Positions 4,968-23,522 of a DNA stretch of 64,000 nt are shown piece by piece. The stretch comes from Thermoleophilia bacterium (GTDB taxonomy: Bacteria; Actinomycetota; Thermoleophilia; RBG-16-64-13), in NCBI GenBank assembly GCA_050943595.1, contig JBMNPM010000001.1, forward strand, positions 112,794 through 176,793. The letters are read 5' to 3'. The notes beneath the pieces were generated by a model. The model had not been told where the DNA came from and did not search any database. It worked only from the letters and a program-made list of their open reading frames with translations. Position 1 is the stretch's first letter. Each line of letters opens with the position of its first letter. The position numbers were made by a program, and so were the translations under genes.

Positions 4968-5453
4968 ATGAGCGATCTCACTTTCACCCGTCTAAGACAT
5001 CCGGATTACGATTTGCTGATGCGACTGGCCACCTACGATGAGGATGTTTTTGGCTCCGTTGGGTTGAGGGCCTGCGATTTGGCTGTGGTGGCTGAGGCGG
5101 GAGCGGTCTTCCTGGCCCACTTCGAGGGAGAGACGGTCGGTAGCTGCCAACTCCTCCGTGTCCTTGAGGAACCCTCGTTCGTGTATGTATTGGGATTCTA
5201 CATACGTCCGTCTTGGCAGGGGCGGGGGTTCGGACGGCGTCTTCTGCAGCAGATGATCGAGGAATGTCGTGGGCTTGGTGTTGATGGTATGGTGCTGACG
5301 GTCTCCCCGGATAATACCAGGGCTATCAATCTCTATAGGAGTGCCGGTTTCGTAGAGGAAGACTGCGTTCCCGATTTCTACGGAGCAGGCGAAGACCGTT
5401 TTATCCTGCGTTGGCGGTCCGGCGAGGTGGACTTGCCCTACCGTGTATCATAG
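4968..5453 (+). CDS. GNAT family N-acetyltransferase
   Basis: 'RPSWQGRGFGRRLL' acetyl-CoA-binding motif. Confidence 0.7.
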   Translation: MSDLTFTRLRHPDYDLLMRLATYDEDVFGSVGLRACDLAVVAEAGAVFLAHFEGETVGSCQLLRVLEEPSFVYVLGFYIRPSWQGRGFGRRLLQQMIEECRGLGVDGMVLTVSPDNTRAINLYRSAGFVEEDCVPDFYGAGEDRFILRWRSGEVDLPYRVS

Positions 5454-5480
5454 AAGCTCCAGCTGAGGAGACGAGGATTC

Positions 5481-6179: not shown

Positions 6180-6221
6180 GTTACGACCAAGGGCCGGGGT
6201 ATGGCCCGAGGGAGGCTGTGT

Positions 6222-8711: not shown

Positions 8712-9302
8712 CTAGGAGTCCGCAGCCGCCCGGCGTTTGCCGTCCGCCACCAGAGCGAACATGAACCCTCCCAGGTTGTCGACGGTGACCGTCTCAAAGA
8801 AGGGGCGGAAGATCTGAGCAGCTTGTGTGTTGCTCAACCGGAGATGGGGCGGAGGGCCATTCTGCCACGAGGCCGGTTCGGTCCGCCAGTCAATCATGAC
8901 CACTCGGCCGGGATCGCGTAGTGCCTTGAGCAGACGACTCATCCCCACGTCGCCCGCGGTCTCGTGCAGCGTGACTATGGAGTAGGCTGTGTCGATACTG
9001 TTTGCGGGTAGAGGCATATCGCGGATGTCGCCCTCGAGCAGGTGGACGTTGGCCGGTACGCCTCTCTGCCTGTAGGCGTCGTTCATTCGCGGGGACAACT
9101 CTAGGGCGTAGATGACGCCGGTTGTGTGTTTGGCGACCAGATCCGTGTAGAAGCCGGTACCGCTACCCAGGTCGGCCAAGTCCTCGGTGCCACGCAGGTC
9201 GAGCAGACGGAGAAGGTCCTCTTCGCTCACCTGGCTCTTGAGCCGAGCAGGATTGTTCAGGCGATGAGCGTTCTCGGGATCAAAGCGCCGGTGATCATCC
9301 AT
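8712..9302 (-). CDS. class I SAM-dependent methyltransferase
   Basis: 'DLGSGTGFYT' SAM motif. I chose the start at 9302 (ATG with an AGGAGG RBS 7 nt upstream). The ORF track extends to 9395. Confidence 0.65.
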   Translation of the reverse strand: MDDHRRFDPENAHRLNNPARLKSQVSEEDLLRLLDLRGTEDLADLGSGTGFYTDLVAKHTTGVIYALELSPRMNDAYRQRGVPANVHLLEGDIRDMPLPANSIDTAYSIVTLHETAGDVGMSRLLKALRDPGRVVMIDWRTEPASWQNGPPPHLRLSNTQAAQIFRPFFETVTVDNLGGFMFALVADGKRRAAADS

Positions 9303-9469
9303 GGAAAGGCCTCCTGACGGGCGGTACGCGTAGCGCATCACGTTGTCAATCATGACACATCTTTCCGCTCCATCTACTCCACCACCGGCGGCCAATGCTC
9401 TAAGGTCATCCCTATGGGCATCGTGGCCCTCTTCGCCATCGGCGCAGTGCTATACTCGTGCCGTCAAGA

Positions 9470-9640: not shown

Positions 9641-10279
9641 GTGCGTGCGGTGGTAGTTGCCGGATCCGATCTCAATGAGACCTTGGACACCTCATTGCTG
9701 GCGACGGCCGACGTCCTGGTCGCCGTCGACGGGGGAGCGGACGCTCTAGCCCGCGTAGGTGCACTGCCGGCTGTTCTCGTCGGCGATCTCGATTCCATCA
9801 CTCCGCACACCCGTGCGCATCTCGATACGCAGGGGGTGGAAGTGGTGCTCCTACCTGTTGCCAAAGATATCACCGATACCGAAGCCGCCCTTCGTCTGGT
9901 GGTGGAGCGAGGTGCCGACGACATCGTCGTTCTAGGCGCTCTGGGTGGGCCTCGTCTCGACCACCTGGTCGGCAATCTGCTGCTGCTCACCGCCAATTGG
10001 TTGGTCGGGTGCCGGGTTTGCCTGATCGACGAGCGGCACGAGGCCTTTCTGTGTGGAGGTGATGCCGTCTTGATGGGGGAGCGTGGTGACACGGTTTCCT
10101 TGATTCCGCTGACGTCTGAGGTGACCGGTGTATCTACTGAAGGGCTCTTGTATCCGCTGACGGGCGAGACGCTACGTTGGGCGGTCACGCGCTCCCTCAG
10201 CAACACCATGATTAGAGATGAGGCACGTGTGACCCACAGCGACGGTCAGTTACTCGTTATCCACTATCGAGGGAGATGA
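9641..10279 (+). CDS. thiamine pyrophosphokinase
   Basis: 'VLVGDLDS' and 'VVLGALGGPRLDH' TPK motifs. GTG at 9641 with a GGGAGG RBS. The 9593 start would overlap the riboswitch expression platform. Confidence 0.75.
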   Translation: MRAVVVAGSDLNETLDTSLLATADVLVAVDGGADALARVGALPAVLVGDLDSITPHTRAHLDTQGVEVVLLPVAKDITDTEAALRLVVERGADDIVVLGALGGPRLDHLVGNLLLLTANWLVGCRVCLIDERHEAFLCGGDAVLMGERGDTVSLIPLTSEVTGVSTEGLLYPLTGETLRWAVTRSLSNTMIRDEARVTHSDGQLLVIHYRGR

Positions 10280-10614
10280 TACTCATGGATGGCACATCAA
10301 CCACAAGAGAAGGCTACCAGAGCCCCGACATCGTTGGCTGCCAGTTCTCCATCTATCCCCTGCGACAGCCTGACTTGGATGGTTCTATCCGTGGGGCGAT
10401 CCAGGCTGCGGCAGATCAGGGGTGCCGCGTGCGGGTACAGAACCTGAGCACATTGCTCTCCGGAAGCGAAGATGAGGTACTCGCAGGGTTGCGCGCGGCC
10501 TTCCGTGCCGCGCAGGAGCGTGGCCCTATGGTTATGGTCGCCACCTTAGTGGCCGGCATGCCCACCGACGAACTGGTGGGTAAGATCCAGCAGGAGCTTG
10601 ACGCCGGCACGTGA
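10276..10614 (+). CDS. YkoF-like thiamine/HMP-binding protein (MTH1187/YkoF family)
   Basis: ~110 aa ACT-like protein between the TPK gene and an ABC transporter, under TPP riboswitch control. Confidence 0.5.
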   Translation: MILMDGTSTTREGYQSPDIVGCQFSIYPLRQPDLDGSIRGAIQAAADQGCRVRVQNLSTLLSGSEDEVLAGLRAAFRAAQERGPMVMVATLVAGMPTDELVGKIQQELDAGT

Positions 10615-11417
10615 GGACTGCCGCCAGGACATTGTGGCGCAGTGATGTCGTTCCGCCCCTGTCGCTCCTTGTCGCACTCGGTCTGGCCTGGTATTTCGTA
10701 GCCGAGTTCAGCGGCCTTGGATCGTTCGTTCTGCCCTCGCCGGTGGACGTTGCGCGGGCAGCCTGGGAGACTCGTGGTCTCCTCTTTGATGCGGTCGGCA
10801 CTACGGTGATGGCGACTGCGATAGGGTTGTTTATCGCTCTCGTGGCCGGGGTGGGGTTGGCGGCTCTGATTGATTTCTGGCCGTTGGCGCGCCGGGCCCT
10901 TTACCCACTCCTGGTGGTATCACAAACGTTGCAGATACTAGCGATCGCACCCATCCTGGTCATTTGGTTTGGGTTCGGAATGGTTCCGACCGTCTCTATC
11001 GTTGTGCTGTTCTGCTTCTTTCCGCTAACCATAAGCACTGCCGATGGCTTGGCGTCCTCAGATCCAGAATTGGTGGCCCTGCTCCGGGCCATGGGGGCTG
11101 GTAGGCGACAGATCTGGAGGATGGTGCGACTGCCGTCGGCTCTGCCGTCGTTCTTCACCGGGTTGCGCATGGCGGTCACATACAGTGTGGTGGCGGCGAC
11201 CGTTGGAGAGTGGGTGGGAGGCTCCCCGGGGCTGGGGCTGTATCTGCTCCGCTCCAAGAATTCGCTTGCGACGGACCAGGTGTTCGCGGCTATGTTCGTC
11301 ACGTCGTTGCTGAGCATATGCCTGTTTCTATTGGTTATGGGTATCGAGCGAATCGCGCTGCCCTGGTACTACTCCGCGCAGCGGCAGGAGCAGTGGGAAG
11401 GCCAGGGCATCTACTGA
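10611..11417 (+). CDS. ABC transporter permease (NitT/TauT/ThiX-type)
   Basis: 6 TM helices and a binding-protein-dependent transport signature. Coupled to the neighbouring genes. Confidence 0.8.
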   Translation: MRTAARTLWRSDVVPPLSLLVALGLAWYFVAEFSGLGSFVLPSPVDVARAAWETRGLLFDAVGTTVMATAIGLFIALVAGVGLAALIDFWPLARRALYPLLVVSQTLQILAIAPILVIWFGFGMVPTVSIVVLFCFFPLTISTADGLASSDPELVALLRAMGAGRRQIWRMVRLPSALPSFFTGLRMAVTYSVVAATVGEWVGGSPGLGLYLLRSKNSLATDQVFAAMFVTSLLSICLFLLVMGIERIALPWYYSAQRQEQWEGQGIY

Positions 11418-11433: not shown

Positions 11434-12450
11434 TTGTATATGAAACGCGTGTCTCTTATCGTGTTGACGCTGCTGTTGGCGGTGTCGGTAGTCGCCTGTG
11501 GGGGCGACGCGTCGACAGAGTCAACGACCCCGAGATCAACGGCGTCGGGGTCGGTGCCGGTGACCCTCATGCTCGATTGGGTGCCGAACACCAATCACAC
11601 AGGTGTCTATGTCGCTCAGCAGAAGGGGTATTTCAAGGAGGCTGGGCTCAACGTCAAGATCGTTGAACCCGGTGAGGTCTACCCGGAGGGAGCGGTCGCC
11701 AGTGGTGCTGCCGATTTCGGCATCAGCTTCCAGGAGTCTGTCACCCTTGCTCGGGCTGAGGGTGCGCCCATTGTTTCTGTTGCCGCAGTACTTCAGCACA
11801 ATACGTCGGGCTTCGCTTCGCTCGCCGGTCTCGGCGTTGCCGGACCGGCGGATTTTGAAGGGTTGCATTATGGTGCCTGGGGATCGCCCTCTGAGATTCC
11901 CACCTTAAAAGCCCTCATGGAAGGTGTGGGTGCCGATTTCAACAGGCTGAAGATGGTGACCACCGGTTTTGCGGATGCGCTTGCGCTTTTATCTCAGAAA
12001 CAGGTGGATCTGGTGTGGATCTACTACGGTTGGCAGGGCATCCAGGCGAAGCAACAAGGTATCGACCTCGACATCGTCATGATGCAGGACTATCTGGATT
12101 CCGTCCCTGATTTCTACACGCCTGTGGTGATCGCCGGAGAGTCGACTATTGCTCAGAGACCCGACACGGTGAAAAGGCTCATCGGGGCGCTGTCCCGTGG
12201 GTATACGTTCGCGGCTCAGAATCCGGACGAAGCGGCGGATATCCTCATGGCGGCGGCGCCGGAGTTGGACAAGGAGTTGGTTAAAGAGAGCCAGAGGTGG
12301 ATCTCACCTTACTACATAGCCGAAGCGCCTCGCTGGGGGGAGCAGAAGGAGAGTGTCTGGCAGGGCTATTCCGACTGGCTGGCCAAGAACGGTGTTGTCG
12401 CCTCCTCAGACGATGTCAAGAAAGCATTCACGAACCAATTCTTGCCTTGA
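11434..12450 (+). CDS. ABC substrate-binding lipoprotein, NMT1/THI5 (ThiY-like) family
   Basis: Lipobox 'VVACGG' and NMT1-like SBP fold features. Sits in the thiamine operon. Confidence 0.75.
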   Translation: MYMKRVSLIVLTLLLAVSVVACGGDASTESTTPRSTASGSVPVTLMLDWVPNTNHTGVYVAQQKGYFKEAGLNVKIVEPGEVYPEGAVASGAADFGISFQESVTLARAEGAPIVSVAAVLQHNTSGFASLAGLGVAGPADFEGLHYGAWGSPSEIPTLKALMEGVGADFNRLKMVTTGFADALALLSQKQVDLVWIYYGWQGIQAKQQGIDLDIVMMQDYLDSVPDFYTPVVIAGESTIAQRPDTVKRLIGALSRGYTFAAQNPDEAADILMAAAPELDKELVKESQRWISPYYIAEAPRWGEQKESVWQGYSDWLAKNGVVASSDDVKKAFTNQFLP

Positions 12451-13208
12451 TACCGCGGATCGAACTACGACACGTGAGTAAGACGTTCGTGGGCGGCGGC
12501 CGCGTTGTTCCGGCACTGCGCGATGTCTCTTTCCAGGTGATGCCTGGGGAGTTCATCACCATCATAGGGGCCAGCGGCAGCGGCAAGAGCACGTTGTTCA
12601 ACCTCTGCGTGGGGCTGCTTGAGCCGGATGAAGGTGCGATCGTCATCGACGGTGTGGAGCCTGAGAAGCGTCTGGGCATGGTTGGCTACATGCCTCAACG
12701 CGACCTGCTGCTGCCTTGGCGAAGTGTCCTGGATAACGTACTCCTGCCGCGGGATGTCAGAGGCATTCCGCGGCAGGAGTCGCGGCACGAGGCGCTGGGG
12801 ATGTTGGAGTACTTTGGATTGAGTGGCTTTGAGCAGGACTATCCGTCCGCGCTGTCTGGGGGTATGCGCCAACGTGCCGCCCTACTGCGGACCTGGCTCA
12901 CAGATTGCGACACCTTGCTATTGGATGAACCATTCGGAGCGCTGGACGCTCTCACGCGTAAGGAGCTCCAGGATTGGCTGCTGCACGTGTGGGAAGAGTT
13001 CGGAAGAACGGTGATGTTTATTACCCATGATGTAGAGGAGGCCGTTTATCTTGCCGACCGAGTGATCGTTCTCAGCTCCCGTCCGGGTACGGTGCAGCGG
13101 GAACTGACCGTGGATCTACCCCGACCCCGCCGGCAGGGGATGGTTGCAGAGCCCGGCTTCGGTATCTACGTCCGGGATCTACTGCGGGATCTGGGCGTCG
13201 ATACGTGA
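12447..13208 (+). CDS. ABC transporter ATP-binding protein (ThiZ-like)
   Basis: Walker A 'GASGSGKST', signature 'LSGGMRQR', Walker B 'LLLDEPFGALD'. The start is likely a TTG at 12447 or a GTG at 12474. The ORF-track start at 12297 overlaps the SBP gene. Confidence 0.8.
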   Translation: MIPRIELRHVSKTFVGGGRVVPALRDVSFQVMPGEFITIIGASGSGKSTLFNLCVGLLEPDEGAIVIDGVEPEKRLGMVGYMPQRDLLLPWRSVLDNVLLPRDVRGIPRQESRHEALGMLEYFGLSGFEQDYPSALSGGMRQRAALLRTWLTDCDTLLLDEPFGALDALTRKELQDWLLHVWEEFGRTVMFITHDVEEAVYLADRVIVLSSRPGTVQRELTVDLPRPRRQGMVAEPGFGIYVRDLLRDLGVDT

Positions 13209-13236
13209 CGCCTGCGGCTTCGTTTTCACCGGCCTT

Positions 13237-14976
13237 CTAGCGGTAGAAACGGATCTCGGTCAACTCCACTCCCCAGCGGCCGTTGCTGAGTTCGGCCATC
13301 TGTGTCAACCAGATACGGCCTGACGTGATGCCTTCCCGTAGGGTGAGGATCTGCGAAGTGTGCCCCGCGAGCACGGCCAGGCGGGCCGAGGCGTCGGAGG
13401 AGACATCCTGCAGCAGTTCTCCCTTCCACCCCTCGACGGTAGATGTGATCTCAATGACGGTGGCCTTCTCTGCGAGCGTGAACCGAAGTCCTACGCCCGT
13501 CTTGTCTATGCTGCCGAAGGTGCTGGATCGATAGGGTTCGGTCGTCCAGCCGGTAGACTCATCACCGTCGGTGAGGCGTGCGATGAGCTCTGGATTCTCT
13601 TGCTCGTCCCCCTCCGGGTCGTAGTCCTCCATCTTGGTCACTTTGACGGGCTGAGGCTTTCTGGCCACGGTGAGGCGGAGGATGTCGTCGGCGCCCTCGC
13701 CGGCGGGCGGATCCTGCTCGAGTACCAGACCTGTCGGTTGGTCGAAGGAGGGGACCTGATAGGCCATCTCTACTTTCATGTCCTTCTGCTCAGCCAGCTT
13801 CTGCGCCTCGTCAAAGTGTAGGCCTACGACGTCGGGGGCCTTGTCGTCACCCAGAGCGAGTAGGAGTACCACGACGATGATGACAATGAGGAGTGCTGTG
13901 GCGCCCACCATGCGCCAGCGTTGTATGGTTCGCTTCTTGCGCGCTAGGGCACGTGCCTGCATGCGGCTGGGGGCGGATCTCGCGGCGCCGTCTGCCCGTC
14001 GGGCCACGGATGTGGGTGGGACGCCCGCCGGGATGCGGCGGAAGCGAGTCGCTTCTTCGCCGGTTCGCCTGTGTAGGCGGCGGTGCTCTCGGGCTTCAGG
14101 TACTCTTTGAAGTGTGTATAGGCCGAGGCCCACAAGGGCGCCGAGGAGTTCGTCCATGGAGGAGAATCTGTCTTCGGGACGTTTCTCCAGGCAGCGCATT
14201 ACCACTTTCTCCAGGCCGGGCGGCAGGTCGGTTCGGGTTTTCCGAGCTTCCGACAACGGCACGGGTGGCGTGCTCAGATGTTGTCGCGCGATTTCGGGCA
14301 TGCTGTTGCCATCGAACGGAGGATGGCCGACCAACATCTCATACATGACGATGCCAAGGGAGTAGATGTCGGAACGGGCATCGACCGGTTTGCTGCGCAC
14401 CTGCTCGGGCGACATATACCGCGCACTGCCTATGATCGATCCGGCCCGTGTTACCCGGGTCCAATCTGTCCCGGTAGCGATGCCGAAGTCGGTCACCTTC
14501 GCGTGGTTGTGTCTGTCGATGAGGATGTTCTGCGGCTTGACGTCGCGGTGGATGATGCCGGCGAGATGAGCCACTGCCAGTCCTTCGGCCGCCTGGCCGG
14601 CTATGTGCCCGGCCTCCGCCGCAGGCAGAGGGCCGTTGCGGGTCGATTCCTTTAAGGAGCGCCCCTCAACGTATTCGAACACCAGGTAGTCTTCCTTATC
14701 GGTTGAACCGCGATCGATGAGGGTGACCAGGTTGGGGTGGGATAGTTGTGCCAGGGCTCGACCTTCGCGGTCGAAGCGGGCCCTGGTCCGGGCGTCTTCG
14801 TTGAGGGGCGGCTCGAGCCACTTGACGGCCACGTTTCGTTCCAGACGAGTATCCCAAGCCTGATAGACGACGCACATGCCTCCTCGTCCCAAGATCCGGC
14901 CCAGTCGATACCGGTTTTTGAGGAGGGGAGTGTTCTTGTTCTGGTCATCTTGTTTCTGATCGCGAGTGTCTGCCAT
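13237..14976 (-). CDS. Ser/Thr protein kinase with TM helix, PASTA domain and C-terminal discoidin/galactose-binding-like domain
   Basis: Hanks kinase motifs 'HRDVKPQNIL', 'DFGIA' and 'GSARYMSPEQ'. A TM helix 'ALLIVIIVVVLLLAL', then a PASTA-like segment and a ~170-aa C-terminal domain. Confidence 0.85.
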   Translation of the reverse strand: MADTRDQKQDDQNKNTPLLKNRYRLGRILGRGGMCVVYQAWDTRLERNVAVKWLEPPLNEDARTRARFDREGRALAQLSHPNLVTLIDRGSTDKEDYLVFEYVEGRSLKESTRNGPLPAAEAGHIAGQAAEGLAVAHLAGIIHRDVKPQNILIDRHNHAKVTDFGIATGTDWTRVTRAGSIIGSARYMSPEQVRSKPVDARSDIYSLGIVMYEMLVGHPPFDGNSMPEIARQHLSTPPVPLSEARKTRTDLPPGLEKVVMRCLEKRPEDRFSSMDELLGALVGLGLYTLQRVPEAREHRRLHRRTGEEATRFRRIPAGVPPTSVARRADGAARSAPSRMQARALARKKRTIQRWRMVGATALLIVIIVVVLLLALGDDKAPDVVGLHFDEAQKLAEQKDMKVEMAYQVPSFDQPTGLVLEQDPPAGEGADDILRLTVARKPQPVKVTKMEDYDPEGDEQENPELIARLTDGDESTGWTTEPYRSSTFGSIDKTGVGLRFTLAEKATVIEITSTVEGWKGELLQDVSSDASARLAVLAGHTSQILTLREGITSGRIWLTQMAELSNGRWGVELTEIRFYR

Positions 14977-15065
14977 GGGCCTGCCTAATGGGTCCTGATG
15001 ACGCTTTGCTATGGGTCGACCAAATACTATGATAGTACGTGTAGACGGTTTGGAGGTGATGACTC

Positions 15066-15266
15066 GTGATCTACTACGTGATCCCGCGCGAACTGGCGGA
15101 TAAGTACTACGAAGAATTCAAGAAGCGCTTCGAGGGTGTCGAAGGCGTGGAAGTCATAATCGACCGTCGTGAGCATGACCGTCGCGGAAACTCTCAAGGC
15201 GGAGGGCAGCGTGTGCTGCGGGACCGCCGGCGTCGTCGGGCCTACGGCTCGTTCTTGGACGTGTAA
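15066..15266 (+). CDS. small Arg-rich hypothetical protein (66 aa), first gene of the AmmeMemoRadiSam operon
   Basis: GTG start with a GGAGG RBS 10 nt upstream. Its stop lies 6 nt before the PHP gene. Sequence is 'MIYYVIPRELADKYYEEFKKRFEG...RDRRRRRAYGSFLDV'. Confidence 0.5.
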   Translation: MIYYVIPRELADKYYEEFKKRFEGVEGVEVIIDRREHDRRGNSQGGGQRVLRDRRRRRAYGSFLDV

Positions 15267-15271
15267 GTACG

Positions 15272-15964
15272 GTGCCTGCCGGATTCAAGCTGGATCTCCA
15301 TAATCACACGAACTATTCGTCGGATGGTGTGTTGCCGCCGGCCGCTCTGTTGAATATGGCCAAGCAGCGTGGTCTCGATTGCCTGGCGATCACCGACCAT
15401 GATTCGGTTCGTGGCGCTCTGGAGGCAGCTTCACTGGCTTTGGCCGATCCGACTCTTCCTCGAGTCATTCCCGGCGTGGAATTGACCACTCGGGTGGGAG
15501 AGATCATCGGTCTCTACGTGAGTGAGGATATTCCCAAGCGGCTACCGCTCAACGAGGCCGTGACCCGTATCCGGGAACAGGGCGGACTCGTTTATCTTCC
15601 GCACCCGTTTGATTATCTGCGCCGTGGGACCATTTCCCCTCGTGAGCGTCTCCGGGCTGCACAGTGGGCCGACATCATAGAAGTCGTCAACGGACGCTCA
15701 CTGGGGCCGGGGCCGGCCAAGAAGGCGGCTGCGCTGGCGGAGAAGCTTGGTAAGCCGGCAGGCGCCGGGAGCGATGCCCACTGGCCGTCGGAAGTTGGCA
15801 CGGTATACGTCGTGACCGCGGCTCTACCGACGGTGGAGACGCTGGTCGACTTACTTGCAGCGGGGCATGTGCAGGGGGGTATGCGATCGCGGCAGTACGT
15901 GCTCAATTGGGGGTTGAAGAGCTTGGCGCCGGTCACGCGTTTGCGTAGCCGCCTACCCTCATGA
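15272..15964 (+). CDS. PHP-domain phosphoesterase
   Basis: 'LDLHNHTNYSSDG' and 'ITDHD' PHP metal-binding motifs. 4-nt overlap with the radical SAM gene. Confidence 0.75.
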   Translation: MPAGFKLDLHNHTNYSSDGVLPPAALLNMAKQRGLDCLAITDHDSVRGALEAASLALADPTLPRVIPGVELTTRVGEIIGLYVSEDIPKRLPLNEAVTRIREQGGLVYLPHPFDYLRRGTISPRERLRAAQWADIIEVVNGRSLGPGPAKKAAALAEKLGKPAGAGSDAHWPSEVGTVYVVTAALPTVETLVDLLAAGHVQGGMRSRQYVLNWGLKSLAPVTRLRSRLPS

Positions 15965-17043
15965 TCGTGACTGAACCCATGCAGGCCGCCCTGTGGGAGG
16001 AGTGGTGTTCCTCAGGAAAGATCCACTGTTTTCTCTGCGCTCATCATTGCCGTATCGGGCCGGGTGAGCGGGGTCTCTGTGGAGTACGCGAGAACCGTGA
16101 GGGTGCACTGTACACCCTGGTATATGGATGTCCCATATCGACGGCTGCTGATCCCATCGAGAAGAAGCCGTTGTTTCACTTTCTGCCCGGCACGTCCAGC
16201 TACTCCATTGCCACGGTGGGGTGTAACTTCAGGTGTTCGTTCTGCCAGAACGCCGATATCAGCCAGATGCCTCGCGGCGGCGGCCGGGTAGCGGGTGGGG
16301 TGATGCCGCCTGAGCAGGTGGTCTCCGCCGCCCGCAGGGCCGGTTGCCGGAGTATCTCCTTCACTTACACCGAGCCCACCATCTTCTACGAGTACGCTCG
16401 GGATTGCGCCCGCCTGGCCACTTCCCAGGGTCTCAAGAATATCTTAGTCACCAACGGCTACATGACAAGACAGATGCTGGCCGATCTGGACGGGGACCTA
16501 CACGCGGCCAACGTCGATCTCAAGTCGTTCTCCGACGAGTTCTATCGTACGATGACAGGCGCCCGTCTCCAGCCCGTTCTGGATTCGATCCGCCGTCTGC
16601 ACGAGATGGGTGTCTGGTTAGAAGTCACGACGCTGCTCATCCCCGGCTATAACGACAGCGCGGATGAGCTGCGCGCATTGGCTCGTTTCTTGGTGTCGGT
16701 GTCCCCCGACATCCCCTGGCACGTCTCGCGCTTTTCTCCCTGCTACCGATTATTGGACGTGCCGCCTACTTCTCGCTCCTCGCTTGAGGAGGCGTGGCGC
16801 ATCGGCCATGACATGGGTCTACACTATGTATACCTCGGGAACATCCCCGGCTCTGGCTTCGAATCCACCGTATGTCCGGGGTGTGGGGAGGTCGTTATCG
16901 AGCGCCGGGGTTTTGCCATACGGGCCGACAGGCTGAAAGATGGCACATGCCCTCATTGTAGACGGTGTATCGCCGGCATGTCGGATGGCGAAGTTCTGAT
17001 CGCCCGGTCGTCTCAAGGGAGGAAGAAGTATGACCCTACTTAG
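15961..17043 (+). CDS. AmmeMemoRadiSam system radical SAM enzyme
   Basis: 'CNFRCSFCQN' CxxxCxxC motif, an N-terminal Cys cluster 'CFLCAHHCRIG...GLCGVR', and 'DPIEKKPLFHF'. Confidence 0.85.
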   Translation: MIVTEPMQAALWEEWCSSGKIHCFLCAHHCRIGPGERGLCGVRENREGALYTLVYGCPISTAADPIEKKPLFHFLPGTSSYSIATVGCNFRCSFCQNADISQMPRGGGRVAGGVMPPEQVVSAARRAGCRSISFTYTEPTIFYEYARDCARLATSQGLKNILVTNGYMTRQMLADLDGDLHAANVDLKSFSDEFYRTMTGARLQPVLDSIRRLHEMGVWLEVTTLLIPGYNDSADELRALARFLVSVSPDIPWHVSRFSPCYRLLDVPPTSRSSLEEAWRIGHDMGLHYVYLGNIPGSGFESTVCPGCGEVVIERRGFAIRADRLKDGTCPHCRRCIAGMSDGEVLIARSSQGRKKYDPT

Positions 17044-17884
17044 TTGCTATATCACCCCGCACCCGCCCATCGTGGTCCCCGAAGTAGGGGGAGAAGAAGT
17101 GGCGCAGGTGAATGCCACCTATCAGGCTCTACGTACGCTGGGCCGCAGAGTGGCTCTGCTTGAACCGGACACCATCGTAGTGTTGTCTCCCCACAGCCCT
17201 ATGGCGCGCTTTGGGATGGGTGTGTCATTGGCCTCGTCCTTTCGAGGTTCGCTGGTTCACTTCCGGGCACCCCAGGTACGTCTTGAGGTGGCGGCCGACG
17301 TGCAGGTAGCCCGGGCCATCAACGACGATGCGGTCGCTCGCGGCATACCCATGGCTGTGACGGCATCGCCTGGGACCACTATGGATCTGGATCACGGAGC
17401 CATGGTCCCTCTCTATTTCTTGACCGCTGATTTGACGCGCCCGTACAAGCTGGTGTTGTTGTCCTTCTCGCATCTGAGCCTTGAGGAACACGTTCGCTTC
17501 GGCCGGATCATAGGACGGGTGTTGATGGCGAGTTCGGCCGGGATCGTGTATGTGGCAAGTGGCGATCTGAGTCATCGCCTCTGCCAGGGGGCTCCGGCCG
17601 GCTTCGATCCCCGGGGGGCGGATTTTGACCGGGCGGTGACCACTTTCTTTGCGGCGGGAGACTGGGAAGCGCTGCTGAGTATTGAACCGGGGACGGTGGA
17701 CGCGGCCGGAGAATGCGGTTACCGTTCATTGGCTGTGCTCTCCGGCATCATCGAGACGGTCACCGGCGCCGGTGACCGCACAGAGAACCATCTTCTCTCC
17801 TATGAAGGACCTTTTGGGGTGGGCTATTTGGTGGGGGAGATCAACATCATGAACGCAGATCCGCAAACGGAGAGTGTCCCATGA
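17030..17884 (+). CDS. LigB/Memo-superfamily protein (AmmeMemoRadiSam system protein B position; class III extradiol dioxygenase-like)
   Basis: 'ITPHPPIVVPE' and 'ASGDLSHRL' motifs. 14-nt overlap with the radical SAM gene and 4-nt overlap with the AMMECR1 gene. Confidence 0.65.
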   Translation: MTLLSCYITPHPPIVVPEVGGEEVAQVNATYQALRTLGRRVALLEPDTIVVLSPHSPMARFGMGVSLASSFRGSLVHFRAPQVRLEVAADVQVARAINDDAVARGIPMAVTASPGTTMDLDHGAMVPLYFLTADLTRPYKLVLLSFSHLSLEEHVRFGRIIGRVLMASSAGIVYVASGDLSHRLCQGAPAGFDPRGADFDRAVTTFFAAGDWEALLSIEPGTVDAAGECGYRSLAVLSGIIETVTGAGDRTENHLLSYEGPFGVGYLVGEINIMNADPQTESVP

Positions 17885-18417
17885 GTGGAAACGTAGAGCG
17901 CCCTGCCGACTCCGTGGTGTCCCTGGCACGGCGGGCCGTCGAAGCCTACGTACGGGATGGGGAGGTCGTCGAGCCGGCTGAGATCCCCGAGCTGGAACCG
18001 CGGCGGGCGGGGGTTTTTGTGTCGCTACATCTGAGGGACGGATCGTTGCGGGGCTGTATCGGCACCCTACAGGCTACCTGTGACACCATTGAGAAGGAGA
18101 TCGTGAGCAACGCCGTCAGCGCCGCGACTCGTGATCCACGTTTCATGCCCCTGTCCCCGGACGAACTCGAGGGGCTTGATGTATCGGTGGATGTGCTCGG
18201 ATCGTCCGAGGAGGTGTCTGGCGTCGAGGATCTTGATCCCAAAAAATACGGTCTGATCGTGCGCACGGAAGACGGCCGGCAGGCTCTGCTCCTGCCCGAT
18301 CTGGAGGGCGTGGATACGGCTGAGCAGCAGCTACGGTTCACCTGCCGCAAGGGTGGGATCAACCCGAAGCGCGATCGTTACCGGCTCTTTCGCTTTCAGG
18401 TGGATCGCTATCACTAA
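17881..18417 (+). CDS. AMMECR1-domain protein (AmmeMemoRadiSam system protein A)
   Basis: 'LRGCIGT' AMMECR1 signature, 178 aa. Confidence 0.8.
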   Translation: MSGNVERPADSVVSLARRAVEAYVRDGEVVEPAEIPELEPRRAGVFVSLHLRDGSLRGCIGTLQATCDTIEKEIVSNAVSAATRDPRFMPLSPDELEGLDVSVDVLGSSEEVSGVEDLDPKKYGLIVRTEDGRQALLLPDLEGVDTAEQQLRFTCRKGGINPKRDRYRLFRFQVDRYH

Positions 18418-18541
18418 ACTGGGGGGCTTCGTTTTTCGGCGACCTCCCAGCGTCCCTGAGCCCAAACCCGTCCTTTGCATGGGTTCGGTCCTAGGTTATG
18501 ATAATTTTACACATAGTGAGCATCAGTGATAGGGAGTATCC

Positions 18542-18958
18542 GTGTCGATTTATGCACCCGGGGCTGTAGTCTTGAGCTCCAAGTTTCGTAAGCCCAGGCT
18601 CTTCCGATTCTCGCTCACGCGTCATCTGGTCTGGCGCGCCCTACTGAAGATTTTATACCGCGCCACCCATATCAAACACGGTAACCTTTGGGAGTACAAA
18701 CTCGGTTACAGCGTGCGTGACGTGGTGGGCGACAAGAGCCGGGCTGTGAAGGACCAGATGGAAGTATTTGCCCAAGCTGTACAAAAAGCGGGATCCTATA
18801 AGGCCAAAGATGAGGCTACGCGTGCTTTCCGCGCCGTTATGGAGGCTCTGAACGATCGCGTACCTCCCGACGTACTTATAAAACTGAGTGAGTCGCTCCC
18901 CGTGCGCGAGGCCGCCCGTCTGCGCCGCGCCGCCACTCAGAAACTGAACAAGAGCTGA
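18542..18958 (+). CDS. hypothetical protein, possibly DUF2267-like
   Basis: GTG start with an AGGGAG RBS and an AT-rich -10 region upstream. A helical repeat 'AFRAVMEALNDRVPPDVLIKLSESLP' resembles DUF2267. Confidence 0.4.
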   Translation: MSIYAPGAVVLSSKFRKPRLFRFSLTRHLVWRALLKILYRATHIKHGNLWEYKLGYSVRDVVGDKSRAVKDQMEVFAQAVQKAGSYKAKDEATRAFRAVMEALNDRVPPDVLIKLSESLPVREAARLRRAATQKLNKS

Positions 18959-19040
18959 GAGGCTGCTGGGACGGACGCCCAAGTATTAGCCGATGTGTGA
19001 GAGTCGACGGGCCGGCGTGGACCTCGTTACGATGGTGCGT

Positions 19041-20489
19041 TCAGCCTTTCACTACTCCTAAGGGCCGTAGGCGGGCTACTCGAGGCGAGATGCCTGCACG
19101 GTGCATCACACCGACGACCTGCTCTACGTCCTTGTACGCCTCCGGCATCTCTTCGCCCAGCGTCTTGGGGCCCTGGGAGCGAACTACTATGCCTGCAGCC
19201 GACAATTCGCGGTCAATGGCTCTGCCACGGGCGCGTTTAAGGGCTTGGCTCCGGCTCATCACTCGTCCCGCACCGTGACATGTGGAGCCGAAGGTCTGTG
19301 TCATGGCCTCCGCAGTGCCCTTACACACGAAGGAGGCGGTGCCCATATCCCCTGGGATGAGGACCGGCTGGCCGACTTCTCGATAGTCGTCCGGCACGTC
19401 GGTGTGGCCCGGGGCAAAGGCTCGGGTAGCTCCTTTTCTGTGCACACAGGCTCTGATGGTTGTACCGTTCAGGTCATGGGTTTCGAGCTTAGCGATGTTG
19501 TGGGCTACGTCGTATACCAGCCGTAGACCCAACTCGCGGGGAGAGATGCGCAGGGCGTGAAGGATGGCTTTCTCCACCAGGTGCATGATTATCTGGCGGT
19601 TGGTCCAGGCATAGTTGGCCGCACAGGCCATCGCAGCCAGGTAGCGGCGGCCTTCCGGTGAGGCCACGGGGGCGCAAACCAATTGACGATCGGGAAGCTC
19701 GATCTTGTAGCGGCGGCTCGCCTCAGCCATGACCTTCAGGTAGTCCTCGCAGATCTGATACCCGAGACCTCGTGAGCCGCAGTGGATCATGATGGTCAAT
19801 TGCCCTTCGTGGAGGCCGTAGGCTGCGGCCGCCCGGCGGTCAAAGACGGTCTCGACCACCTGCAGTTCGAGGAAATGGTTGCCCGAACCCAAAGTGCCCA
19901 ACTGATCGGCCCCGCGTGTGTAGGCACGTTCGCTCACCATCGCCGGATCGGCTCCGGCCAGAGCGCCGTGGTCCTCGGTGTGCTCCAGGTCGGCTGCTGC
20001 ACCGTAACCCTGTTCCACCGCCCAGCCTGCACCTTGTATCAGCACTCGCTCCAGTTCGCTGCGGGCCAGGCGGGCGATCGCTCCCTTGGAGCCCACTCCC
20101 GAGGGCACGTCTCGGAACATCTGCTCAATCAGACGGGGCTCCTTTCCTGTGATGCTCTCGGTGGTGAGGTCGGTGGCCAAGAGCCGGCAGCCACAGTTGA
20201 TGTCGTAGCCGACTCCGCCGGGTGATATCACACCGTCATCCACGCTGAACGCCGCCACCCCCCCGATGGGGAAGCCGTAGCCGAAGTGGATGTCGGGCAT
20301 GGCCAGCGAGTAGCGGACGATCCCGGGTAGCTGGGCCACGTTGCTCACCTGGGTCAGGCTTGAGTCGTCCCGCAGCGCCTGCATGAGCTCGTCGTCGGCG
20401 TAGATACGCCCCGGCACGCGCATGACCTCCGTCGGAGGCAGTTCCCAGACTACTTCATCAATGCGCCGTGGTGCTCTCATCCCACTCAT
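19041..20489 (-). CDS. rtcB: RNA-splicing ligase RtcB
   Basis: 482 aa with the RtcB motifs 'HCGSRGLG' and 'HNIA', and catalytic His 'HGAGR'. Confidence 0.9.
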   Translation of the reverse strand: MSGMRAPRRIDEVVWELPPTEVMRVPGRIYADDELMQALRDDSSLTQVSNVAQLPGIVRYSLAMPDIHFGYGFPIGGVAAFSVDDGVISPGGVGYDINCGCRLLATDLTTESITGKEPRLIEQMFRDVPSGVGSKGAIARLARSELERVLIQGAGWAVEQGYGAAADLEHTEDHGALAGADPAMVSERAYTRGADQLGTLGSGNHFLELQVVETVFDRRAAAAYGLHEGQLTIMIHCGSRGLGYQICEDYLKVMAEASRRYKIELPDRQLVCAPVASPEGRRYLAAMACAANYAWTNRQIIMHLVEKAILHALRISPRELGLRLVYDVAHNIAKLETHDLNGTTIRACVHRKGATRAFAPGHTDVPDDYREVGQPVLIPGDMGTASFVCKGTAEAMTQTFGSTCHGAGRVMSRSQALKRARGRAIDRELSAAGIVVRSQGPKTLGEEMPEAYKDVEQVVGVMHRAGISPRVARLRPLGVVKG

Positions 20490-20524
20490 CTTCTACTCAT
20501 CTCCTACTTAGCTCATCGTCCACG

Positions 20525-20977
20525 TCACACGTCGAGTAGTACCGTCGCCACCCATCCCTGGTCCGGTGTATGGGCGGCCGTCAATTGGTGATAGGTGACC
20601 GCTTTGACCTCGGCAAACAAGGGGTGCCGTAGTGGATCGACGGTCTCTCCCCACAGATGGGCCTCGGCCAGGAGATGAGGAGTCTCGGCTCGTGGCGTCA
20701 TTGGGCCTGTCTGCACGTCGACGCGCGCACCGGCGGCGACGAAACCATCGACCTCGAACCGAAACAACGCTTCGGCCAGTAGGGCGCGCAACGTGGTCTC
20801 CACCGAGGGGCCGGTGACCTTCAAGACCAGTTCGTTATCGGGCTGAACGGTCTTTACATCAGTTATCTGCCGGTACAGGGCATAGAGGGCGTTCTCGAGA
20901 AGCTCGTTGACCACCCGGCCGTGGATCTCCAGAAAGAGATCGGCCGGGTGGTCGAGGTCGGTATAGGCGCAGCTCAT
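20525..20977 (-). CDS. archease (RtcB activator)
   Basis: 'YTDLDHPADLFLEIHG' matches the archease N-terminus. The start is probably the second Met. The ORF track begins at 21001. Confidence 0.7.
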   Translation of the reverse strand: MSCAYTDLDHPADLFLEIHGRVVNELLENALYALYRQITDVKTVQPDNELVLKVTGPSVETTLRALLAEALFRFEVDGFVAAGARVDVQTGPMTPRAETPHLLAEAHLWGETVDPLRHPLFAEVKAVTYHQLTAAHTPDQGWVATVLLDV

Positions 20978-21005
20978 GTCCCTGTCTATCCAGAGAAGCA
21001 TGTCT

Positions 21006-23522
21006 TCAGCTCTCCGCGTCCTCTGAGGCTGCTTCGGCCCGACCGGCTCCCTTCTTGGCTTTGGTCGCGCGGCGCTTCTTTGCGCTTTCCAAGACCTGCT
21101 CGAGCACAGTGCTCACGTGGTCCGTATATACGAACGTCAGTCCCGCCAGTAGGTCCTCTTCTCGTATGTCGGCCACATCGGCCTCGTTGCGGTCGGGGAG
21201 GAAGACCTTGGTGATCCCGGCGGCGCGGGCGGCCAGCACTTTCTCCTTGATGCCGCCTACGGGGAGCACCTGGCCGGTGAGGGTCACCTCGCCGGTCATG
21301 GCCACATCTGGGTCGACAGGACGTCCGGAGACCATGCTGGCTATGGCGACGGTCATGGCTACGCCTGCCGAAGGACCGTCTTTGGGCACTGCGCCCGCGG
21401 GGACGTGCACGTGGATGTCGTTTTTCTGGAAGAATTCATCGTCGCCCCCCAGGTCGTCCGACATGCTGCGTACCACGGTCAGGGCGGCCTGTGCCGACTC
21501 TTTCATCACATCGCCGAGTTGGCCGGTGAGGATCAGACGGCCGGTGCCCGGCATGGCCCGCGCTTCGATGAACAGTATGTCGCCTCCCGTGGGAGTCCAG
21601 GCCAGGCCCGTGGAGACGCCGGGATCGCGGGTGCGACGCTTGGTTTCACGGAAGACCTTCCTCTTACCCAGGAAATCCGGCACCTGCTCAGAGTCGACGG
21701 TCAGGTTATCTTTGGTCTCTTCGGCCACCATACGGGCGAACTTACGGGCGATGGTACCTATCTCGCGCTCTAGGCTGCGCACTCCGGCTTCGCGCGTATA
21801 ACTCTCGATGACCGCCTCTAGGGCCTCATCGGTGAACTCCAGTTGGCCCTCCTTCAGCCCGTTGCGGTCCAGCTGCCTGGGTACCAAGTATCGTTTGGCA
21901 ATGTGTAGCTTGTCTTTCTGCGTGTATCCGGCGATGGAGATGATCTCCATACGGTCACGCAGGGGGCCGGGGATGGTGTCGAGCATATTGGCGGTGCAGA
22001 TGAACATGACCCGGGAAAGATCAAAGGGCAGGTCGAGATAGTGATCGCGGAAGGTGTTGTGTTGCTCGGGGTCGAGCACTTCCAACATGGCACTGGAGGG
22101 ATCTCCCCGCCAGTCGGATCCCATCTTGTCGATCTCGTCGATCATAAAAACTGGATTGTTGCTGCCGGCATCACGAAGGGCCCGGATTATGGTGCCCGGC
22201 ATGGCGCCTACATACGTGCGCCTGTGTCCGCGGATCTCCGACTCGTCGCGTACGCCCCCCACGCTGATGCGGATAAACTTCCTCCCCATTGCTCTGGCGA
22301 TGCTCTTGCCGAGACTGGTTTTGCCCACCCCCGGGGGTCCCGCGAAGCAGAGGATCGGTCCCGATACCTCGCTTTTGAGTTTCTGCACGGCAAGGAACTC
22401 AAGGATGCGGTCCTTGACATCTTCGAGGTCGTAGTGGTCTTCGTCGAGAACGGTGCGGGCGTGCCCGATGTCGAGGTTATCCTCGGTGGTCACCGACCAG
22501 GGCAGTGAGAGTATCCAGTCCAGGTAGGTGCGGATGACCCCATACTCGGCTGCGGCCGGCGGCAGTTTCGAGAGCCGGTCCAGCTCGCGCCGAGCCTGCT
22601 TGTCGACTTCTTCAGGCAGCTGCGCCTCGTCCAGTCGGTCTCGTAGCTCATTGGTCTCAGCTTGGGTCTCGTCGGTCTCACCCAGCTCCTCCTGGATGGC
22701 CTTCAGCTGCTGGCGAAGGAAGTACTCGCGTTGGTTCTTGTCCATCTCCGACTGGACCTGGCTCTGGATCTTCGAGCCGAGTTCCAGGACCTCGAGTTCA
22801 CGGTTCATGAGGCCGGTGAGGCGGCGGAGGCGCTTGGAGACCTCCACCTCTTCCAACAATTCCTGCTTCTCCTCCGCCTTGAGACGCATGGTCGAGGCGA
22901 TGAAGTAGCCGAGTGCGGATGGGTCCTCGATGTTGGCCGCCGCCATCTCGAGCTCATCAGGGAGATTGGGCACCAACTGGATGATCTTGGTGTATACCGA
23001 TAGCAGGTTGCGTTGCAGGGCTTGGAGTTCCGGGCCTTCTTCCAGCACATCGGGTAGATCGGTGACCTTCGCCATCAAATAAGGCTCTTCAGCGATGAAC
23101 TCATCGATGGTGAAGCGACGTACACCTTGGGCGACGATGCGCAACGAGCCGTCCGGTGCCTTGAGCATCTTCTGGATGTTGGCCAGCACGCCTACGTGGT
23201 AGACGTCTCCGGGCATGGGGATCTCGATATCCGCCGATTTGGCCGCCACGAGGCCGACCTGTCTGTCGCCACGCAGTATGTCATCGATGAGGTGCACAGA
23301 TCGCGGCTGGGCTACAGCCAGGGGCAACAGGGTATCCGGGAAGATGACCGTGTCTTTGAGGGGCATTATGGGCAACCCCTGGGAGTGTAGCCGTTCGGTC
23401 GCGTCTGCGGGTTCCTGGGAGACGAGGATGAAGTCCTGATCGGCGGCGCCCGGGTCGTTTCTCTCCTCGCTTTCTGGGCTCATGAGGGCGCCGAAATCGA
23501 TTTCGTGAGCCGCCATAGTCAC
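21006..23522 (-). CDS. lon: ATP-dependent Lon protease
   Basis: LON N-domain, AAA+ 'GPPGVGKTS', and the proteolytic 'PKDGPSAG' Ser-Lys dyad. Confidence 0.92.
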   Translation of the reverse strand: MTMAAHEIDFGALMSPESEERNDPGAADQDFILVSQEPADATERLHSQGLPIMPLKDTVIFPDTLLPLAVAQPRSVHLIDDILRGDRQVGLVAAKSADIEIPMPGDVYHVGVLANIQKMLKAPDGSLRIVAQGVRRFTIDEFIAEEPYLMAKVTDLPDVLEEGPELQALQRNLLSVYTKIIQLVPNLPDELEMAAANIEDPSALGYFIASTMRLKAEEKQELLEEVEVSKRLRRLTGLMNRELEVLELGSKIQSQVQSEMDKNQREYFLRQQLKAIQEELGETDETQAETNELRDRLDEAQLPEEVDKQARRELDRLSKLPPAAAEYGVIRTYLDWILSLPWSVTTEDNLDIGHARTVLDEDHYDLEDVKDRILEFLAVQKLKSEVSGPILCFAGPPGVGKTSLGKSIARAMGRKFIRISVGGVRDESEIRGHRRTYVGAMPGTIIRALRDAGSNNPVFMIDEIDKMGSDWRGDPSSAMLEVLDPEQHNTFRDHYLDLPFDLSRVMFICTANMLDTIPGPLRDRMEIISIAGYTQKDKLHIAKRYLVPRQLDRNGLKEGQLEFTDEALEAVIESYTREAGVRSLEREIGTIARKFARMVAEETKDNLTVDSEQVPDFLGKRKVFRETKRRTRDPGVSTGLAWTPTGGDILFIEARAMPGTGRLILTGQLGDVMKESAQAALTVVRSMSDDLGGDDEFFQKNDIHVHVPAGAVPKDGPSAGVAMTVAIASMVSGRPVDPDVAMTGEVTLTGQVLPVGGIKEKVLAARAAGITKVFLPDRNEADVADIREEDLLAGLTFVYTDHVSTVLEQVLESAKKRRATKAKKGAGRAEAASEDAES

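Follow-up and report, generated by a model that had tools for sequence, protein, structure and literature searches.

AmmeMemoRadiSam systems bring together an AMMECR1 protein (protein A, TIGR04335), a Memo protein (protein B, TIGR04336) and a radical S-adenosylmethionine (SAM) enzyme (TIGR04337). The neighbourhood and the fusions of AMMECR1, radical SAM and ring-opening dioxygenase genes were noted by Balaji & Aravind 2007 (PMC2034487), who proposed a role in the modification of RNA bases, in which a conserved cysteine would relay a radical. A passage of PMC7159879 cites Burroughs et al. 2019 for the term "Memo-Ammecr1 systems". In this study, we analyzed an operon of this kind at positions 15066-18417 of a 64,000-nt stretch of DNA, hereafter the window, from a Thermoleophilia bacterium (GCA_050943595.1, contig JBMNPM010000001.1, positions 112,794-176,793 of the forward strand). 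A sequence-only reading of the locus had described a five-gene cluster built around an AmmeMemoRadiSam system with two additional genes, one for a PHP-family phosphoesterase and one for a 66-aa basic protein. Our results show that the operon is a lineage-specific variant of the known system, not a categorically new one, and of moderate interest. Its radical SAM enzyme and AMMECR1 protein score above the curated cutoffs, as in AmmeMemoRadiSam systems; unlike in those systems, the B slot holds a LigB-fold paralogue that fails TIGR04336, and a PHP gene, the small gene and a DUF2267 gene are added.

Gene order and core enzymes of the operon

The list of open reading frames (ORFs) of the window places five ORFs, all on the + strand, between 15066 and 18417 (Table 1), and their junctions were read directly in the sequence. 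The small ORF ends with TAA at 15264-15266 and is followed, after a gap of 5 nt and not of 6 nt as first counted, by the GTG of the PHP gene at 15272. The other junctions are those described in the sequence-only reading: the PHP and radical SAM genes overlap as ATGA (15961-15964), the radical SAM gene (stop TAG at 17041-17043) and the LigB-like gene (ATG at 17030) overlap by 14 nt, and the LigB-like and AMMECR1 genes again overlap as ATGA (17881-17884). The Shine-Dalgarno sequence of the LigB-like gene, GGGAGGA at 17017-17023, lies inside the 3' end of the radical SAM gene, and GGAGAG precedes the AMMECR1 start. The good ribosome-binding site attributed to the small ORF is present, GGAGG standing 9 nt before its GTG, and a candidate promoter falls in the 89-nt intergenic gap between the small ORF and a divergent gene for a PknB-like kinase. 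The description of a compact and apparently translationally coupled cluster of five genes thus agrees with the junctions, and the arrangement is not due to chance, because the same order recurs in seven further full-length loci. When 13000-21500 was compared with Rfam (E <= 1), no RNA family came up, which rules out a known riboswitch or small RNA as the leader or the small ORF. A repeat scan of 14700-19200 gave short chance matches and nothing more. PADLOC reported no defence-system match beyond a weak generic radical SAM match to pVip (32 bits).

The radical SAM protein reaches TIGR04337 (345.2 bits, cutoff 220) and matches PF04055 with 92.7 bits. Its CX3CX2C cluster motif, CNFRCSFCQN (C88, C92 and C95), occupies invariant columns of the alignment, as does an N-terminal motif of four cysteines (C23, C26, C30 and C40), and the C-terminus carries a CxxC...CxxC ribbon (C305, C308, C330 and C333). 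The closest solved structure is that of the pyruvate formate-lyase (PFL)-activating enzyme (3c8f, E = 1.5e-9), and the closest characterised relative is likewise the PFL activase. The protein shares with glycyl-radical activases a CX3CX2C motif close to the N-terminal end of the barrel; unlike them, it has the additional N-terminal four-cysteine and C-terminal zinc-ribbon-like motifs. It scores below the cutoffs of the glycyl-radical activase models (TIGR02493, 60.5 versus 231.75 bits; TIGR02494, 46.7 versus 174.35 bits), and no gene for a glycyl-radical enzyme was found in its neighbourhood in the gene lists and Pfam annotation of the window.

The AMMECR1 protein reaches TIGR04335 (129.3 bits, cutoff 99) and PF01871 (153.8 bits), and its matches in the PDB are MM0484 and PH0010. 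It contains LRGCIG at residues 56-61, including C59, and DPRF at residues 85-88; the RGChG and DxRa motifs of AMMECR1 were proposed as its active site by Balaji & Aravind 2007 (PMC2034487). With both curated cutoffs passed and the diagnostic motifs present, the assignment of these two proteins to the AmmeMemoRadiSam family stands. The genes also lie together as in that family, overlapping in the order radical SAM-B-A, and B and A are fused in L011, the locus of another Thermoleophilia bacterium. The core system consists of the radical SAM enzyme, the protein in the B slot and AMMECR1, in the order found in triple-fusion proteins of other phyla. Two metagenomic loci encode such fusions of radical SAM, Memo and AMMECR1 in a single ORF, L105 at 2916-5486 (857 aa) and L107 at 4030-6534 (835 aa), with 392-410 bits for TIGR04337, 241-245 bits for TIGR04336 and 190-191 bits for TIGR04335. 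Together with the B-A fusions of sister genomes, which parallel the Memo-AMMECR1 fusions of other phyla, these proteins imply a physical complex of the three components.

The protein in the Memo slot

The sequence-only reading had recognized LigB/extradiol-type motifs in the product of the middle gene, in place of those of a classic Memo protein, and several results agree with it. The protein matches Pfam LigB (PF02900) with 133.1 bits, for a gathering score of 26.3, and remains below the TIGR04336 cutoff (13.9 bits, E = 0.024, versus 26), a model that gives 202-245 bits for the Memo-type neighbours of homologous radical SAM enzymes. No match to Pfam Memo (PF01875) was found at E <= 0.01, and PRK00782 was not reported at E <= 10. 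The N-terminal motif is ITPHPP (PHPP at residues 10-13) with no PHAGY, and SGDLSH is found at residues 177-182. An AlphaFold2 (AF2) model of the protein, with a predicted local distance difference test (pLDDT) of 89 and a predicted template-modelling score (pTM) of 0.90, was compared with solved structures using Foldseek. The top-ranked match was TK2203 (5hee, E = 6e-19, template-modelling (TM) score 0.76-0.82), followed by 2-aminophenol dioxygenases, HpaD (8iq8, E = 5.5e-15), DesB and DOPA dioxygenases, and then by LigB (1bou_B, E = 2.8e-12). Over the class III extradiol dioxygenases as a whole (TK2203, 2-aminophenol 1,6-dioxygenase, HpaD, DesB and LigB), TM scores were 0.70-0.82 and E values ran from 6e-19 to 3e-12. 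The Memo structures 3bcz, 7kq8 and 7l5c came at ranks 33-37 (E about 2e-9, TM score 0.52-0.59), and 32 LigB-type chains outrank the first of them. Both the sequence model and the fold ranking place the protein nearer to the extradiol dioxygenases of class III than to Memo. The B slot thus holds a LigB-fold paralogue, not Memo.

Eleven residues are invariant in the family (H11, H55, D121, H154, D179, H182, E228, C229, Y258, E259 and Y266). Among them, H11, H55, E228 and H182 do not vary in 26 family members, and their position in the motifs suggests equivalence to the Fe(II) ligands of LigB. Judging from motif position, H11, H55, D179, H182, E228 and C229 appear to combine the His/His/Glu set of extradiol enzymes with the Asp/His/Cys set of Memo. 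The fold and the Pfam LigB match, and perhaps also His11, His55 and Glu228 with His182, are common to this protein and the extradiol dioxygenases; unlike those enzymes, it has Memo-like S.DLSH, CG and C-terminal VGY elements, it is fused to AMMECR1 in relatives, and its gene is embedded in an anaerobe-associated radical SAM system with no catabolic genes nearby in the gene lists of the window. An hhalign comparison of its profile with the Memo neighbours gave a probability of 75% (E = 2.6e-5) over the S.DLSH, CG and C-terminal VGY segments. With Memo/MEMO1 (PF01875, TIGR04336, PRK00782) it shares the superfamily, the operon slot, the Asp-x-x-His of SGDLSH and a Cys-Gly motif; unlike Memo/MEMO1, it has no HAGY motif and does not reach either TIGR04336 or PF01875.

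A protein search returned at least 8000 candidates, of which the best 120 (at least 56% identity) were examined. Several LigB-AMMECR1 fusions of 447-458 aa from relatives are among these 120, and the fusion of L011 (447 aa) bears the NCBI name "AmmeMemoRadiSam system protein A". Among the matches listed, some close homologues are labelled "MEMO1 family protein" or "AmmeMemoRadiSam system protein B" by JGI, and the NCBI names of unfused homologues are extradiol-dioxygenase-like or hypothetical. The gene overlaps on both sides, the AMMECR1 fusions and the gene order of the triple fusions suggest that the LigB-like protein still works in the B position. Of note, the public gene calls of GCA_001768675.1 (Actinobacteria bacterium RBG_16_64_13, locus L002) have no genes on record between radical SAM and DUF2267 (9969-11353). 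They appear to miss two genes, since tblastn of this interval detects intact coding regions for the LigB-like protein (59% identity) and for AMMECR1 (65% identity).

Genes that accompany the core

The block formed by the small gene, PHP, radical SAM, LigB-like, AMMECR1 and DUF2267 genes recurs in seven full-length loci (L001, L002, L010, L011, L012, L013 and L083), all of which fall in one Actinomycetota clade, with radical SAM identity down to 64%. An eighth locus, L095, is cut at its 5' end and was counted from the radical SAM gene onward; it carries radical SAM, LigB-like and AMMECR1 genes, a 166-aa ORF with no Pfam match, RtcB, archease and Lon, and PHP, the small gene and DUF2267 are not confirmed there. 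In clade loci with called genes, the distance between the small ORF and PHP never exceeds 20 nt. PHP and radical SAM are up to 114 nt apart, the gap being 114 nt in L010 and 67 nt in L011. The block is more stable than its flanks, because RtcB/archease comes and goes and the transporter is of ABC or ECF type.

To place the block in a wider context, two samples of loci were used. In the first, a scan with the radical SAM alignment was run on one genome per GTDB species, and the best 80 loci (41-70% identity, from many bacterial and archaeal phyla) were examined by hidden Markov model (HMM) and tblastn scans of 8-kb flanks. The combination of a LigB-type B with PHP, the small protein and DUF2267 was found in only three of the 80, namely the Actinomycetota loci L012, L013 and L083. 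A Memo-type B adjoins the radical SAM gene in five of the 80 loci, and in most loci no A or B gene lies close by. The other 77 loci contain no LigB, small protein or DUF2267, and PHP is seen there only as a weak, divergent gene in L073 and L076. The second sample comprised 80 AMMECR1-centred metagenome loci; 49 have Memo, mostly fused to AMMECR1, and 23 of these 49 also have the radical SAM gene. PHP, a LigB-type B, the small protein and DUF2267 were found in none of these 80 loci. The three added genes are thus absent at the 157 sampled loci outside the clade, bar the two weak divergent PHP genes, and within the loci sampled they accompany the core only in this clade. Co-occurrence of PHP with the core is not common outside the clade, which makes it clade-specific in these samples; none of the 80 AMMECR1-centred loci has it, the 23 complete Memo-type triads among them, and no annotation seen counts it as part of the AmmeMemoRadiSam system. 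The view of PHP as an addition to the system, not a usual or already annotated part of it, is thus borne out.

Two further associations were observed at loci with homologous radical SAM genes. In L073 (6933-7823, - strand) and L076 (3384-4274, - strand), both from metagenome-assembled genomes (MAGs) of Deltaproteobacteria, a distant PHP-domain ORF (44 bits on the clade PHP HMM) directly but divergently adjoins a radical SAM gene of the AmmeMemoRadiSam type. This may be chance or a second, independent association, and it counts as one event because both loci look related. In 16 of the 80 genome loci (L014, L016, L018, L022-L024, L026, L029, L032, L033, L039, L040, L047, L051, L057 and L080, mostly Desulfobacterota-type MAGs), a class-I SAM methyltransferase gene (Methyltransf_11/25) lies just upstream of the radical SAM gene on the same strand, often overlapping it; truA lies just downstream in nine of them and rplM-rpsI in eight. 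The window gene at 8712-9395 (- strand) was considered as an orthologue of this methyltransferase and rejected, its similarity being generic only (27 bits).

The PHP protein passes PF02811 (39.3 versus 26.4 bits) and PHP_C, PF13263 (46 versus 21.3 bits), and its metal-ligand motifs are complete: HNH at residues 10-12, TDHD at 41-44, GVELT at 68-72 (E70), LPHPF at 109-113 (H111) and GSDAH at 166-170. In this it resembles the PHP-family phosphoesterases TM0559 (2anu), Cv1693 (2yb1), RNase AM/YciV (7ug9) and CehA/McbA, which have PHP and PHP_C with full metal motifs; at 230 aa it is shorter than the YciV-type enzymes (about 290 aa), and it lies below all NCBIfam cutoffs. The best NCBIfam match is CehA/McbA NF038032 (77.1 bits versus a cutoff of 80), and the scores for RNase AM NF047791 (57.3 versus 375 bits) and 3',5'-bisphosphate nucleotidase NF041577 (66 versus 400 bits) are lower still relative to their cutoffs. 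PDB matches, to the pAp phosphatase 2yb1 and to RNase AM 7ug9, span the N-terminal 70 or so residues alone.

The small protein is highly basic, as had been claimed, with the Arg-rich C-terminus RDRRRRRAYGSFLDV. Its ORF is kept in the syntenic relatives. Between the seven clade orthologues, differences at the three codon positions number 280, 105 and 790, and synonymous codon changes outnumber non-synonymous ones (627 versus 279), a pattern indicating that the small ORF is a real gene under purifying selection. GTG is the start codon of the small gene in the window and six relatives (L001, L002, L010, L011, L012 and L083); L013 has ATG. In an AF2 model, a strand (residues 2-6), a helix (8-21) and a second strand (28-32) are followed by an unstructured Arg-rich tail. 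The predicted beta-alpha-beta module (residues 2-32) is too small to classify, and a Foldseek search of the model against solved structures returned nothing better than E = 2. At its end, the tail bears the conserved linear motif R-D-R-R-R-x-R-[IVAM]-[PST]-G-[TS]-F-P-[DE]; of 293 family members, 281 have its G, 257 its F and 252 its P. The Ser/Thr of G-[TS]-F-P-[DE] is near-invariant and a divergent PknB-like kinase adjoins; that the tail might be a kinase substrate is pure speculation. One family member from a JGI metagenome, P0307 (115 aa), shows an apparent internal duplication, the segment from DPNVTVI(I/V)DRR through RDRRR...GEF occurring twice in one ORF.

No Pfam, NCBIfam or PADLOC match was obtained for the small protein. 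Homologues numbered 535; the 120 listed share 79-98% identity and are nearly all 66 aa long. A search of cluster representatives gave 66 clusters at E <= 1e-3, and the family profile recovers at least 7997 proteins. Members are unnamed or listed as "hypothetical protein", except for a few JGI entries that wrongly bear the name "ribosomal protein L34"; among the matches listed, those with a named source come from Gaiellaceae, Solirubrobacteraceae and unclassified Actinomycetota. The protein therefore defines a large family without a Pfam or NCBIfam model, whose members named so far belong to Thermoleophilia. Eight loci from outside the clade were read, L005-L009 by HMM and tblastn scans and L092-L094 by Pfam-annotated gene lists, and in all eight the small gene (at 7001-7234 in L005-L009 and L092) has a different conserved neighbourhood. 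There, a gene for an EF-G-like GTPase is followed by one for a 204-247-aa protein, by the small gene and sometimes by an aldehyde dehydrogenase gene, and then by a gene for an RNase H-like protein. The 204-247-aa protein has an N-terminal, zinc-ribbon-like CxxC...CxxC motif and no Pfam match. No PHP, radical SAM, LigB or AMMECR1 gene was found within up to 7 kb on each side at these eight loci. The EF-G-like/RNase H-like neighbourhood may be the primary functional context of the family, and the small protein may have been recruited to the operon in this lineage.

The DUF2267 gene lies downstream of the block in all seven relatives. A promoter-like sequence, TTTGCA-17-TATGAT, was found by consensus scan at 18474-18502, ahead of this gene, which may be the sixth gene of the operon or else a separate transcription unit; its true start may lie downstream of 18542. 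Upstream, the divergent PknB-like kinase gene with a PASTA domain is also present in the seven relatives, as detected by Pfam in L001, L010 and L011 and by ORF clustering in L012, L013 and L083; in L002 it is split into two gene calls, with a Pfam match for the PASTA part alone. Beyond DUF2267, the operon faces convergent genes for RtcB (586 bits), archease (100 bits) and Lon. The convergence with rtcB-archease that the sequence-only reading had pointed out is thus real in the window and not constant in the clade, RtcB/archease being absent in L001 and L010, which rules them out as part of the unit. Synteny in the clade includes thiamine kinase, a transporter, the PknB-like kinase, the cluster itself, Lon, HSP20 and UPF0182. 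The wider window encodes PhoH, a 7TM-HD protein, DeoC, RecO, IMPDH, thiamine pyrophosphokinase, an NMT1/ABC transporter, UPF0182 and Lgt. The locus is ordinary chromosome in a housekeeping context. Within the transporter region, the ORFs of the NMT1/THI5-like binding protein (11434-12450) and of the ABC ATPase (12297-13208) overlap by about 150 nt; the real start of the ATPase is probably further downstream, because its Pfam match begins at residue 74.

Table 1. Position of the operon genes, their signals and the adjacent genes in the window
Feature	Position	Strand	Details
PknB-like Ser/Thr kinase gene	13237-14976	-	PASTA domain; divergent from small ORF
Candidate sigma-70-like promoter	15006-15033	+	TTGCTA-16 nt-TATGAT; consensus scan, 9/12 matches
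Shine-Dalgarno sequence of small ORF	15052-15056	+	GGAGG; 9 nt 5' of GTG at 15066
Small ORF	15066-15266	+	66 aa, GTG start
PHP gene	15272-15964	+	230 aa, GTG start
Radical SAM gene	15961-17043	+	360 aa, ATG start
LigB-like gene	17030-17884	+	284 aa, ATG start
AMMECR1 gene	17881-18417	+	178 aa, ATG start
DUF2267 gene	18542-18958	+	PF10025, 31.6 bits versus cutoff 29.8, residues 76-131 of 138-aa ORF

A possible mechanism and its meaning for the family

We give a probability of about one half to the reading of the operon as a lineage-specific AmmeMemoRadiSam variant that works by the mechanism outlined here, all steps of which we infer. One mRNA would start near 15040 from a single leader-proximal promoter, and translational coupling would yield matched amounts of PHP, radical SAM, B and A. 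The PFL-activase-like radical SAM enzyme would cleave SAM to a 5'-deoxyadenosyl radical, which would abstract hydrogen from a substrate held by the B-A complex. Cys59 in the AMMECR1 cleft could serve as a covalent or radical relay, and the metal centre of B could bind a ring or diol moiety. The PHP enzyme would most likely strip a phosphate from the substrate or product, and the small protein is most likely co-transcribed and not the substrate.

This chemistry would probably need no oxygen, given that AMMECR1 belongs mostly to anaerobes: in a 2026 study (PMC13386939), PF01871 is present in 50.7% of anaerobes against 3.4% of aerobes and has the largest importance value among the indicator Pfams shown in one of its passages. 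The host clade consists of uncultured and probably anaerobic Actinomycetota, and genes for pyruvate:ferredoxin oxidoreductase lie beside the loci of relatives. With the anaerobe association of AMMECR1, these genes make an O2-dependent dioxygenase role of B, such as aromatic ring cleavage, unlikely; the protein itself scores far under every characterised dioxygenase equivalog cutoff (HpaD_Fe, 56.4 versus 316 bits).

Several points weigh against this reading. Conserved adjacency is weak evidence of function here, because about 25 kb of housekeeping flanks are also syntenic, and common descent, not function, may be what has kept PHP, the small protein and DUF2267 in place. The coupling of PHP to radical SAM is not universal, given the gaps of L010 and L011. 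PHP resembles nucleotide/RNA phosphoesterases over its N-terminal 70 or so residues only, far below cutoffs. The apparently full extradiol-type His/His/Glu set of B would also fit an oxygen-using enzyme. Finally, the literature searched gives no experimental function for any AmmeMemoRadiSam component.

The synteny of the whole region and the PHP-radical SAM gaps of up to 114 nt would suit a simpler explanation, in which the radical SAM, LigB-like and AMMECR1 proteins alone form the functional unit, and the genes of PHP, the small protein and DUF2267 are housekeeping neighbours in this lineage, unrelated to that unit and co-transcribed for economy. It would also fit the absence of these three from the 23 complete Memo-type triads and the 80 AMMECR1 loci, the different context of the small-protein family elsewhere and the promoter-like site ahead of DUF2267. 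However, the six-gene block stays intact while RtcB/archease and the transporter type vary, the PHP stop overlaps the radical SAM start in the window, and the small ORF-PHP gap stays within 20 nt in loci with called genes. L073 and L076 likewise have a PHP gene directly, if divergently, beside radical SAM. We regard this core-only organization as possible though doubtful.

According to a second alternative, close to what the sequence-only reading had proposed, the 66-aa protein would be a dedicated substrate, modified for example at the near-invariant Gly of R-h-x-G-[TS]-F, or an Arg-rich adaptor delivering RNA. Its gene comes first in the operon with a strong ribosome-binding site, no other product of the cluster is as well conserved (72-82% identity, versus 46-72% for the enzymes), its tail motif is conserved (G 281/293, F 257/293), and the closest characterised relatives of the radical SAM enzyme are glycyl-radical activases. 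Yet the protein is unlikely to be the dedicated substrate of the system, because its large family sits in a different conserved neighbourhood elsewhere, with none of the four enzyme genes found within up to 7 kb on each side at the eight loci outside the clade, and it is found at 0/77 non-clade radical SAM loci and 0/80 AMMECR1 loci, hence is missing from most AmmeMemoRadiSam loci. The G-[TS]-F motif also differs from the glycyl-radical RVxG[FY], and Foldseek gave the small-protein model no match better than E = 2. A pairing like that of ribosomally synthesized and post-translationally modified peptides (RiPPs), in which the small ORF always occurs with a radical SAM gene, is not what we see: radical SAM is absent within up to 7 kb on each side at the eight loci, and the small protein at 157 radical SAM/AMMECR1 loci. 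A role as a glycyl-radical substrate has a low probability, the motif being G-[TS]-F and not G-[YF], with no Cys in the clade version and a family that occurs without a nearby radical SAM gene. The proposal of a substrate or dedicated partner thus finds little room in these data, and we consider it very unlikely.

That the LigB-like gene encodes an ordinary catabolic ring-cleavage dioxygenase lying by chance between radical SAM and AMMECR1 is highly implausible: its PF02900 score of 133 bits, its best solved matches among extradiol dioxygenases and the apparently kept His/His/Glu positions would allow it, but the protein is far below characterised equivalogs (HpaD, 56 versus 316 bits), no other catabolic genes lie nearby, translational coupling is apparent on both sides, sister genomes fuse it to AMMECR1, Memo occupies the same slot in the triple fusions, and an association with anaerobes holds for both the host lineage and AMMECR1.

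Under the lineage-specific variant reading, the nature of the substrate can be addressed tentatively. Removal of a phosphate by PHP would favour a phosphorylated, nucleotide- or RNA-type substrate over an isoprenoid or a protein. Genomic contexts of Memo have reportedly been linked to the modification of nucleotide bases and isoprenoids. The nearest characterised relatives of PHP, pAp phosphatase and RNase AM, lean weakly towards nucleotide or RNA by analogy, as do, also weakly, the Arg-rich co-transcribed protein and the frequent RtcB/archease neighbours. A similarly weak hint comes from the homologous radical SAM genes found beside truA-rplM-rpsI with a coupled methyltransferase in Desulfobacterota-type loci. 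Nucleotide or RNA would be our tentative choice, an isoprenoid seems unlikely and a protein more unlikely still.

In the AmmeMemoRadiSam family, finding the Memo slot taken by a closer relative of ring-cleaving metal enzymes implies that B provides a metal site for catalysis on a ring-like moiety, and a phosphoesterase translationally coupled upstream means that the substrate or product may be phosphorylated. These clues are circumstantial and come from uncultured organisms; their value is that of a lead for biochemistry rather than a discovery. A bolder reading goes further and takes the machinery to have been rebuilt in this lineage, with a true extradiol-dioxygenase-type metal enzyme in the Memo slot, a dedicated PHP added and the small protein recruited as a nucleic-acid adaptor or protein substrate. 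We hold it to be a long shot; if it were true, the target of the system would be a ring-containing, phosphorylated substrate (nucleotide or RNA). The conservation of AMMECR1 and MEMO1 extends from archaea to humans, in whom they are linked to disease, and the operon would then offer a tractable route to the biochemical function of the human proteins.

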